Source: Flectonema sp. DT1601
Taxonomy: Eukaryota
DNA length: 64,000 nucleotides
Direction: 5' to 3'
Assembly: GCA_964019425.1 (NCBI GenBank)
Contig: OZ025787.1
Location: 62,001-126,000 of the forward strand
The number at the start of each line of letters is the position of its first letter. The stretch's first letter is position 1. The notes below the pieces were generated by a model, which was given only the letters and a program-made list of their open reading frames with translations, ran no database searches and was not told the origin of the DNA. The position numbers and the translations under genes were made by a program. Shown here in pieces: positions 31,501 through 34,039 of the stretch.

Positions 31501-34039
31501 TTCTGATACTTCCCCAGAGACCTTTCTCAAGTAGAATCGATCGAAGATCATTACTTTCACATCGAACGATGTAATCATTCTTGTCGGCTTCACTAAATGG
31601 ACGCATCTGATAGACGTCTACGTCACTTATAAAGTTATTTATGGTTAAACCATTCCTCGTTAAGTACTCAAGACGACATGTTATAAGAATCTGAACACCA
31701 GGAGACCCAAGAATACTTGGATTGGCTTCTATTAATTGATTGACAGTTACCGTGTTAGTGATGTCACATGATATCTCATCAAGGCTTTCTAATACAACGA
31801 TAACTTTATAGTTATTTAAGAGGTATTTTATCCTGTCTTTACCACAATCTATTCCCAAAGTATATTTCTTTATATAATCATCAATCGCGTTGTTAGTAAG
31901 AGCCGCACAGATTCCTCGGGAATTTGTAACCCTCGCTAACGGTACGAATATCGGAAATGTCTCATCAGCGGTAGTCAAGAGTTGGCTGACTGTTTTTAGT
32001 GAAAGGGAGGTTTTACCTGAACCACCACCTCCTAGGATGGCTAAGTGAGTTGGTGATTCTTTTGAGGATTTTGTCCATCTGTGTAAAAGTTCGTAGAATT
32101 TAATATCTTCCTGAGGGTCGTCACAAAGATCAACGCAGAGAGTTGCTTCAACGTATTTTTTAAAGAAGTTCTGAAATACGCTGTTCTCTCCAAAAACAAA
32201 CCTATTAGCATTCCTTATTACTTGCAAAACAACTTTTTCTGGAAGACGACCAGTCGGAACTTCAATCATAACGACAACGTCTTGTGATCGATCACACATT
32301 CGAAGAAGAGATGAAGACAATTTCCAAACAACTTTAAAAATGCTATTTGGTCTGAATAGAACCTCATACTCTTTATAAACTGAAAACTGTGTGACGGAAG
32401 CACCTGAAGAAGAAACTTTAAAAATTAAAACCCCACCACCTGGATCCATACATGCCGTTGCAGCAACATCAAACATTTTACTACCAGACATGAAGTGTTT
32501 GAATATGAAGGGACGTCCGACTTGGAAATGTTCTGATCGCAGATTTGCATCCCCTCTCACATCTGTGTAAAGTTTTTGTTTTGGAAGTCTTTCTAACAAT
32601 ACATGAAGCCAGAACATCATTGGCTTCAACATATTAAATCGAACAGTCTCTTTAATACTTCCGTTTACAAGATCAGTGTGATCTGTATCTCTCAGCGTTT
32701 CTTTAATACGTGACGTTCTATAACTTACTTCAGTTGTGTATAAGCAACAGGCTACAATCATATCAGCGGCATCAATTGGGATGCTACCTATTAATGTGTA
32801 AATCCAATAAGAATCCTCTTTAAGAGGAGAGGAACTATCACTGAGAGAGTGTTTAAACCTCATCAGTGATTCTATAATTGATTTCGCTCTACTTTTAATT
32901 GATTTATTTATAGTACTAAAGTCTGACTTAGTGAATCCCATACTTCTAAACGGAGATATGTTTTCATTCAACCAATCAAACATTGTTCCCTCGCTATTTC
33001 TACTAAAGTGTTGAACGATATCAGTTTTTGATATCTCTGAACAATTATACAACTCCTCAAGAATTTCAGGATTATATGAAGGTCGGGATAGATTTAAATG
33101 ACCTGTTGAGTTGTTAAGTTTCAAGGGACTCATTACATCACCAGCCTCAAACTCAGATAGAATTTCAATTAATTCATTCGCATTATTTATATAATACTGA
33201 CTTAGTTGTTTAAAAATCAACTCTTCTTCCTCGATTTCACTACCGAAAGAAATGATCGCATATGAAAGCGGAGAACAGTCAGAATCATCTATGGCGGATA
33301 TTAATTCTGTTTTTGACTGTTCACAAGCAATCTTCATGAGGTGCCTAAGCAATTTATAATTCCCGCTAGCGGCTGCGAGGTGAAGAATATTGGAAGACTT
33401 ACTATCAAGTTTTGTTATATCACCACCCTGTTTAATAAGGTGGTCAACCATACAAAGATTACCAGAGCTTGCAGCAGCATGTAGAAAAGTACTTCCACAA
33501 TTCGGATACATAGGTTGGTTAATTAGCTCTTTTATGGTTTGTGGATTTTCAGTTCTTTTATAATATTTCCGACGATTTTCTAAACACTTTTCAACACATG
33601 AGATAGAACCTCTTTTCATTGAAAAAATCACCGTGAGAGGGGTTCGATCTGGATCCAATGACTCGATGGCATTTTGCAACGCGGTTTCGTTATTTGAATT
33701 AATGACAGTTGTATCAGCTTGTCTCTCAAGTAGGTATTCTATAATAAGAGGACGGGAAAACCATGCTGCGGCATGCATTGGTGTTGATCCTCCACCGTCT
33801 GTGACGTTTACATCAGCTTCTAGTTCTTCAACAATGTATCTTGTTATATTCATGTTCCCTGACTTAGCAGCGAGATGTAATAATGATTTCCCCTCAAACT
33901 TCATATCCGTAGCTCCTGGAGTATCTGTAACCCAATTCACGAACTCTTCTAATGTGGCAGTTGTCATTTCCCAACATATTTCACGGCGGTCACCCTCATT
34001 CAACAACAAGCTCAGTGACTTCCTCACTTTTGGAGGCAT
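28593..34039 (-). CDS. NLR-like STAND protein, ~1791 aa: ankyrin repeats - ADP-ribosyltransferase - NACHT NTPase - pentapeptide repeats - WD40; exons 34039-31282, 31210-28593
   Basis: ANK: GKSLLHLAA, GSTPMHAAA, GSTFLHAAA. ART: LYTTE...VRG...FMSGS...EYEVLFRPNSIFKV. Walker A GGGGSGKT; Walker B-like VIVVLESLDE; ILITCR. Pentapeptide: ADLSNIVFSGCNLKKAVFTNCSLRGAQF. WD40: GHRDKVRCLAY...LVSGSDDKEIRVW. A 71-nt phase-1 intron joins the two track ORFs in frame. Confidence 0.88.
31211..31281 (-). other. Spliceosomal intron, 71 nt (NLR-like gene)
   Basis: GTATGT...CACAACAAACAG; phase 1; gives MLAS-N-TWEG and fuses the 935-aa and 890-aa ORFs. Confidence 0.88.

Follow-up and report, generated by a model that had tools for sequence, protein, structure and literature searches.

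What does an ADP-ribosyltransferase (ART) domain do inside a protist's own protein, and is it a working enzyme there? The question is raised by a 64,000-nucleotide stretch from Flectonema sp. DT1601 (contig OZ025787.1, positions 62,001 to 126,000; hereafter the window), in which an earlier note, made from the sequence alone, had recognized an ART domain with an R-S-ExE catalytic set and proposed a toxin-like, arginine-specific and likely active enzyme. Our analysis places this domain directly before a NACHT ATPase, in a gene that is probably spliced to encode the order ankyrin-ART-NACHT-pentapeptide-WD40. On balance, and with moderate confidence, we interpret the ART as the effector of an intracellular defence receptor resembling the NOD-like receptors (NLRs). 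An ART with R-S-ExE is ordinary when taken alone; its value lies in the architecture and in the family to which it belongs.

An ART domain in front of a NACHT module

The motifs named for 32330..32765 on the minus strand were found at the positions given and in a single reading frame, corresponding to residues 433-570 of a 935-aa open reading frame (ORF; 34039..31232). Pfam recognized ART (PF01129) when the stretch was scanned alone (E = 4.3e-7; 29.9 bits, above the gathering cut-off of 22.3) and did not detect it when the whole 935-aa ORF was scanned. Comparison of ESM Atlas features with ART clusters gave 0.97, at a recognition value of 2131 that lies below the tool's mark of 2300. The AlphaFold model of the domain, built from 46 sequences, reached a pLDDT of 91.3 and a pTM of 0.86, and its best Foldseek matches were Vis, the toxin 6DRE (which we take to be Serratia Tre1), C3, SpvB and ExoT (E 1e-9 to 1e-7). 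The best structural matches were all ARTs of the R-S-E class, and VIA-align superposed the model on 6DRE, ExoS and rat ART2.2 with Z scores of 16.7, 15.9 and 15.9 (root-mean-square deviation, rmsd, 2.3-2.7 Å).

A PDB search with a 22-member family profile returned rat ART2.2 as the best sequence match (E = 2e-13), in a register that sets R-G on R-G, S-T-S on S-S-S and E-x-E on Q-E-E; the same search with the single ART sequence gave chance cytochrome matches only. Since the chain of the ART2.2 E189A mutant reads Q-E-A at the family's E-x-E site, this alignment identifies E559 as the catalytic glutamate. R495, S518 and E559 provide the Arg on strand 1, Ser on strand 2 and Glu on strand 5 that define the class, and Pfam, the predicted fold and the register on ART2.2 agree on an ARTC (R-S-E) identity. 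E557-Y-E559 has the E-x-E form that published rules for the ADP-ribosylating turn-turn (ARTT) loop tie to an arginine acceptor (PMC3000352 and PMC7827354, cited here, like the other papers, from excerpts), which points to arginine as the probable acceptor, as the earlier note had proposed.

The protein is predicted to be intracellular, again in line with that note. The top 11-residue hydropathy within the first 40 residues is 0.41, and no signal peptide is predicted; a single 19-residue window, at residue 415, reaches 1.66 and corresponds to a helix of the modelled ART fold. Besides ART, Pfam shows just ankyrin, NACHT, pentapeptide and WD40 domains, and no secretion, translocation or delivery module. 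A stand-alone or secreted toxin was rejected on these grounds, the ART lying inside a NACHT protein. The description "toxin-like" is thus misleading, as the domain appears to fill the effector slot of the protist's own NLR-like protein of the class of signal transduction ATPases that have numerous domains (STAND).

The predicted spliced gene lies on the minus strand and encodes 1791 aa. There are 24 GT..AG pairs shorter than 130 nt that would keep the frame between its two ORFs; 31281..31211 was singled out among them because the ORFs are collinear there on a family profile, because the segment is AT-rich (GC 0.27 versus 0.38-0.39 in the exons) and because its GTATGT...ACAG signature recurs in three other genes of the window (63049, 19767 and 3136). 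On the profile, built from 36 relatives and running from NACHT to pentapeptide, the first ORF is matched to residue 920 (profile position 134) and the second from residue 17 (position 132), so that the two meet at the junction, and the match to the helical domain and winged helix downstream of the ATPase spans it. We infer that both ORFs are spliced into one protein, which would carry effector, NACHT and repeat sensor in a single chain, the one-protein form of 29 of 82 relatives, several of them from transcriptome assemblies. The shift of reading frame at 31232-31265 might otherwise mark a decaying gene with a frameshift, or an assembly error. This we consider highly improbable and have rejected for the pseudogene case, since the frame is restored, precisely where the profile is collinear, by a canonical intron that bears this genome's signature, and both ORFs are otherwise open (919 and 871 codons).

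The window holds one ART and one NACHT. An AlphaFold model of the two domains together (pLDDT 80, pTM 0.80) suggests a defined ART-NACHT packing, and its NACHT part matches the folds of NOD2, NLRP3 and NLRC4; the family profile also matches NLRP6, NLRP3 and NLRC4 in the PDB. Walker A GK is kept in 60 of 60 relatives and the sensor-1 Arg in 58 of 60, and the Flectonema protein studied here (hereafter the query) has both; by these two motifs its ATPase looks intact. The Walker B of the query reads E-S-L-D-E, against the signature D[GAS]hDE.

The ART-NACHT family and its catalytic residues

A full phmmer search with the 539-aa ART-NACHT part found 82 proteins besides the query's own, 83 in all. 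Hidden Markov models (HMMs) built from the set place ART 53-163 residues ahead of NACHT in 60 of the 82 and recover the order ART-NACHT-pentapeptide-WD40 in the 29 mentioned above; another 16 have NACHT without a detected ART, and six have ART alone. Source names were obtained for 15 among 30 relatives looked up. All 14 named proteins that join ART to NACHT are euglenozoan (Flectonema 3, Lacrimia 4, Namystynia 3, Papus 1, Apiculatamorpha 2, Euglena gracilis 1), and the fifteenth comes from a diatom, with tandem ARTs but no NACHT. Diplonemids are represented by Lacrimia, Namystynia and presumably Flectonema, and Papus and Apiculatamorpha are prokinetoplastids; within this source-named subset the family occurs in diplonemids, kinetoplastids and euglenids.

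When 55 proteins (one cluster member besides 54 of the 82) were scanned with Pfam, the ART-NACHT core was constant and the ends variable. The C-terminal part is WD40, LRR (P0042) or TPR (P0019), and the N-terminal part ankyrin, SAM, RCC1 or a periplasmic-binding-type ligand-binding domain; ankyrin counts follow Pfam, which detected repeats in P0004-P0006 and P0020 that our own ankyrin HMM had overlooked. In four of the five scanned NACHT relatives that lack ART, a restriction nuclease, caspase, CHAT protease or HEPN domain stands where the family has ART, indicating that ART occupies an effector slot.

Conservation was scored across 58 ART-NACHT relatives (the 60 minus two fragments with short ART coverage). 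E559, S518 and R495 are the three most conserved ART columns, each kept in 57 of the 58, at a median pairwise identity of 28% among 56 ART domains. Position 557 is E in 50, Q in 6, L in 1 and a gap in 1, and position 519 is T in 48, A in 4, S in 3, V in 2 and L in 1. The helix Tyr-x3-Asn-x3-Arg has its aromatic in 47, Asn in 44 and Arg (R450) in 50, and 55 have the aromatic of the phosphate-nicotinamide (PN) loop; together these correspond to Y72, N76, R80 and F153 of Vis (PMC3000352, Table 3). Because R, S and E are the most conserved columns, the family is likely catalytic, a conclusion that its sequences support well. The retention of catalytic columns, pocket features, Walker A and sensor-1 further suggests that both the ART and the NACHT activities are under selection.

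In a set of 56 proteins, distances between ARTs were correlated with those between NACHTs (rho 0.48, 0 of 2000 permutations), which speaks for co-inheritance only and not for coupling. In a NACHT tree built by a quick method from 74 rows, 13 ART-less proteins fell on one side of a branch with support 80, with the query beside them; no origin or donor is drawn from this tree, since the ART-less outgroups were chosen by likeness to the query. Homolog searches by word index told us little, returning self only, nothing among proteins of 2411-5000 aa, or self with two NACHT-only matches, and an alignment-based PDB search was swamped by WD40 matches. Pattern scans with a 10-sequence sub-family alignment confirmed 0 of 27 pattern matches on viral contigs and 0 of 23 on bacterial and archaeal contigs, a weak test that does not imply absence. 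The defence-system models of PADLOC gave no specific or meaningful match.

Some relatives have unusual layouts. P0007 (6012 aa) and P0018 (4513 aa) are very large, the former continuing after ART-NACHT-pentapeptide-WD40 into a second NACHT-pentapeptide-WD40 unit. P0047, P0055, P0059, P0040 and P0057 fuse ART-NACHT with a receptor ligand-binding domain, RCC1 repeats, SAM or PDZ, and P0032 (from the diatom Cylindrotheca closterium) and P0083 carry five tandem ART domains without NACHT. P0010, with ART-NACHT-pentapeptide-WD40, is likely a distant paralog on the query's contig.

The query copy and competing readings

The query keeps R450, R495, G496, S518, S520, E557 and E559 and agrees with the consensus at 23 of 29 columns, a middling value within the family. 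In a quick tree of 56 ART domains it falls within a subclade of eight (SH-aLRT 96), picked beforehand from similarity and the NACHT tree, whose terminal branches measure 0.83-2.5 against a median of 0.44, the query's own being 1.28 changes per site. R, S and ExE are kept in all eight members, pointing to selection still at work. The whole subclade has lost the Asn; Gly519 and the missing PN-loop aromatic are not common to the other seven. The query departs from the C2/C3-like toxin consensus [YFL]-R-x and [YF]-x-S-T-[SQT] given in PMC3000352, reading V-R-G and F-M-S-G-S, and has Ala529 and Lys446 in place of that group's PN-loop aromatic and "vital Asn"; the same source records a Val preceding the Arg in Mav toxin. 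Judged by its sequence, the query copy comes from a subclade that evolves fast and whose NAD pocket is remodelled; it may be a weak enzyme, and is somewhat more likely than not to be catalytically active.

Several observations weigh against an active defence effector. The query lacks four of ten scored NAD-pocket features (it has Lys446, Val494, Gly519 and Ala529), whereas 39 of the 58 relatives lack none and four or more are missed only by P0053 and P0041; Gly at position 519 occurs in none of the 58. The PN-loop aromatic stacks on nicotinamide (PMC3000352), and in iota toxin F349A leaves 0% and T339A 20% of activity (PMC3000352, Table 3). In 47 of the 58 relatives the ARTT loop has one residue more than in the query, and the shortening shifts the aromatic of the pattern X-X-phi-X-X-E/Q-X-E (PMC7827354). 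Its NACHT scores 23.8 bits in Pfam, below the cut-off of 26.7, and its Walker B begins with Glu, where 55 of 60 relatives have Asp and three have Glu. The relatives were gathered by similarity to the query, favouring proteins with both domains. Loss of activity does occur in the family, as seen in the full-length members P0041 (a degenerate ART without catalytic motifs) and P0072 (traces of ART only), both candidate decoys or sensor partners. Finally, the neighbouring genes are housekeeping genes (MCM, Dcc1, phosphatidylserine synthase) and carry no hint of defence.

If these departures had cost the query its activity, the receptor architecture would be the same, with a weak or dead ART acting as a scaffold, NAD sensor, decoy or sensor partner of an active paralog. 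The four pocket departures, of which Gly519 and Ala529 are not common to the rest of the subclade, would fit such a loss, as would the abolition of iota activity when the equivalent Phe is replaced (PMC3000352), the degenerate P0041 and P0072, and the query's long terminal branch. We nevertheless regard it as unlikely: R450, R495, G496, S518, S520, E557 and E559 were kept across those 1.28 changes per site, the fit to the consensus (23/29) is mid-range, Phe523 or Cys530/Met531 might occupy the nicotinamide pocket, and S-A-S in human ART1 and S-S-S in ART5 place small middle residues in active or predicted-active vertebrate enzymes (PMC7955679). The earlier expectation of a likely active enzyme stands for the family, where R, S and E are each kept in 57 of 58, and is weakened for the query copy, which has no PN-loop aromatic, Gly in S-x-S and no "vital Asn". 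Alternatively, the main activity of the ART could be that of an NAD+ glycohydrolase, which would drain NAD+ once activated, as TIR, SIR2 and TeTIR effectors of other STAND proteins do, NAD+ destruction being the common output of NAD-using NACHT effectors (10.64898/2026.09.21.753143, 10.1101/2022.07.19.500537). Q-x-E, as in ART2.2, occurs in six of the 58 relatives. Rat ART2.2, the best PDB sequence match of the family profile, is itself mainly an NADase; the top structural matches Tre1, ExoS and Vis, however, are arginine or agmatine transferases. With E-x-E in the query and 50 of 58 relatives, the form tied by published rules to arginine transfer (PMC3000352, PMC7827354), we hold an NADase to be improbable.

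A signalling switch outside defence, in which NACHT-gated ADP-ribosylation would regulate the cell's own proteins in stress or development, would suit the SAM, RCC1, PDZ or receptor ligand-binding domains of some relatives, the housekeeping gene neighbourhood and the lack of a meaningful match to defence-system models. We think this quite unlikely: species hold many divergent paralogs, repeat sensors are swapped, branches are long and some copies are degenerate, a combination typical of immune receptor families.

For an NLR-like defence receptor with an ART effector, the reading we prefer, a mechanism can be proposed by analogy with the effector-NACHT-sensor logic of STAND receptors (10.1101/2022.07.19.500537, 10.64898/2026.09.21.753143). 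The WD40 propellers would keep NACHT closed in its ADP state until a trigger, perhaps an invader molecule or a damaged self protein, opened it; ATP binding and oligomerisation would then release or cluster the ART domains, NACHT thereby gating the enzyme. The ART domains would move ADP-ribose from NAD+ onto arginines of target proteins, and this modification would block the invader or arrest or kill the cell, with the ankyrin repeats choosing the target or adding restraint. The earlier note's idea of an enzyme that acts on activation would fit an architecture of this kind. The coordinates of all features are given in Table 1.

Table 1. Positions in the window of the motifs, domains and predicted exons of the query gene
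Feature	Position	Strand	Basis or remark
Exon 1 (predicted): ankyrin repeats, ART, NACHT ATPase, helical domain 1 (residues 1-919)	31282..34039	-	ORF 34039..31232, Pfam
Predicted 71-nt GT..AG intron (GTATGT...ACAG)	31211..31281	-	would bring both ORFs into one frame
Exon 2 (predicted): winged helix, helical domain, pentapeptide repeat, WD40 propellers	28593..31210	-	ORF 31265..28593, Pfam
Ankyrin repeats, two pairs, N-terminal accessory module	33293..33880	-	Pfam Ank_2 E 2e-26
ART domain, ARTC / R-S-E class	32255..32842	-	approximately residues 400-595; Pfam match 428-571
LYTTE helix motif	32729-32743	-	read from sequence
Lys446 at "vital Asn" position	32702..32704	-	Asn in 44/58; replaced throughout the query's subclade
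Arg450, kept	32690-32692	-	Arg in 50/58
VRG	32552-32560	-	read from sequence
Arg495, region-1 Arg (phosphate binding in solved ARTs)	32555..32557	-	aligns with R-G of ART2.2 and HopU1
FMSGS	32480-32494	-	read from sequence
S-G-S (Ser518, Gly519, Ser520), STS-type motif	32480..32488	-	family alignment
Ala529 at PN-loop aromatic position	32453..32455	-	offset +9 from last Ser, as Vis F153 and iota F349 (PMC3000352, Table 3)
SVYKEYEVLFRPNSIFKV stretch carrying ExE	32330-32383	-	read from sequence
E557-Y-E559, ARTT-loop ExE	32363..32371	-	aligned with Q-E-E of ART2.2
NACHT NTPase core	31550..32050	-	Pfam NACHT E 4.5e-5, 23.8 bits
NACHT Walker A	32006-32032	-	motif
NACHT Walker B (E-S-L-D-E)	31775-31804	-	motif
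NACHT sensor-1 Arg789	31673-31675	-	motif
Winged-helix F-x-H-x-x-x-x-E-Y signature of NACHT module	31041..31082	-	aligned to family profile
Pentapeptide repeat	30624..30764	-	Pfam PF00805 E 1e-8
WD40 beta-propeller region, divergent, candidate sensor	28596..30623	-	Pfam WD40 E 7e-20

Known systems, the surrounding window and implications

The predicted fold resembles those of the ARTC enzymes rat ART2.2, Serratia Tre1, Vibrio Vis, Pseudomonas ExoS/ExoT and HopU1 (Z 15-17, rmsd 2.3-3.3 Å over 160-176 residues), with R, S-x-S and [QE]-x-E in register with the query family. Unlike them, the query, at 16-24% identity, is not secreted, glycosylphosphatidylinositol-anchored or injected but fused within a STAND receptor, and lacks the PN-loop aromatic and the "vital Asn". 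Bacterial bNACHT proteins (Kibby et al., 10.1101/2022.07.19.500537), which include nuclease-NACHT-pentapeptide-WD40 forms, have the same effector-NACHT-repeat layout and share with the query the small residue of Walker B and hDE; P0064, one of the relatives, is itself a REase-NACHT-pentapeptide-WD40 protein. The query differs from them in its ART effector, its eukaryotic host and a gene with a predicted intron, and in the main text of that preprint "ADP-ribos" occurs 0 times and ART is absent from the domain list of Figure 2.

Among eukaryotic systems, the animal NLRs NOD2, NLRP3 and NLRC4 have a NACHT fold like the query's, and a WD40 sensor is shared with HET-E (HET-E/HET-D, fungal NACHT-WD40) and TEP1 (TEP1/NWD, TeTIR-NACHT-WD40). 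In TEP1, as in the query, an NAD-using enzyme stands immediately ahead of NACHT with more domains in front (10.64898/2026.09.21.753143). The effectors of these systems are death folds, pore formers or TIR-like NADases, whereas the query's is a predicted transferase. To our knowledge, no pentapeptide segment has been described for animal NLRs, HET-E/HET-D or TEP1/NWD.

The pairing of ART and NACHT is not unique to the query family, as both occur in one eukaryotic protein in a rotifer-rich ESM Atlas cluster (68 members: NACHT 100%, TIR_2 81%, ART 79%; score 0.84, treated as a lead). In the rotifer proteins, however, TIR is present, and no such protein was recognized among the query's 82 relatives; they may represent an independent fusion. 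A full-text literature search found no paper describing that cluster, and no description of ART-NACHT proteins or euglenozoan NACHT receptors in the full texts covered, supplementary tables lying outside its scope. No ART-NACHT fusion appears in the excerpts of PMC3482391, PMC7159879, PMC9503650, PMC7145615, PMC8195603, PMC8120803 and 10.64898/2026.10.19.760177, the last of which reports ART toxins in ParA systems with a NACHT module possible on a separate ParA component.

Of the 29 long ORFs in the window, 26 lie on one strand; genes for a paraflagellar rod protein, an MCM helicase and a BILBO1-like protein are among them, and by these signs the window is eukaryotic and euglenozoan. A bacterial contaminant was rejected in view of the intron and the paraflagellar rod and BILBO1-type genes. 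Short GT..AG introns with a C/A-rich ACAG end lie on the minus strand at 63049, 19767, 3136 and ~40850, in genes for a kinase, a triose-phosphate transporter, a protein phosphatase and probably Fe-S biosynthesis. Taken with the placement of most genes on one strand, such introns hint at a diplonemid. The BILBO1-like gene at 57076-58974 (N-terminal domain, EF hands) adjoins a repeat of strong skew that has several open frames; this is probably the gene's coiled-coil repeat, and a Pfam scan gave no match for it. Elsewhere, 10674-11945 encodes a ubiquitin-like domain fused to many ankyrin repeats, 38760-40190 a Vanin/biotinidase-like secreted nitrilase with a Vanin C domain, and 44000-53000 is a stretch of ~9 kb in which no ORF is convincing and runs of T and A abound (GC 0.33-0.35).

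Tentatively, and somewhat short of favouring the idea, we suggest that Euglenozoa (diplonemids, kinetoplastids and euglenids) have their own expanded NLR-like family, with arginine ADP-ribosylation as its output, swapped sensors, and fast-evolving or dead copies as partners or decoys. If so, it would add a new effector chemistry to NLRs, a toxin-type enzyme under a NACHT switch; the NLR-type outputs in the surveyed literature, as far as its excerpts go, are nucleases, proteases, NADases and death folds, and an ADP-ribosyltransferase is not among them. Little is settled about how unicellular eukaryotes sense viruses and intracellular bacteria. The question bears on diplonemids, abundant marine grazers that often harbour endosymbionts. 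The multi-copy family, its simple enzymatic read-out and a member in Euglena gracilis make the immunity question testable, and the family, if its proposed role is correct, would offer a way into the study of intracellular immunity or regulated cell death in Euglenozoa.

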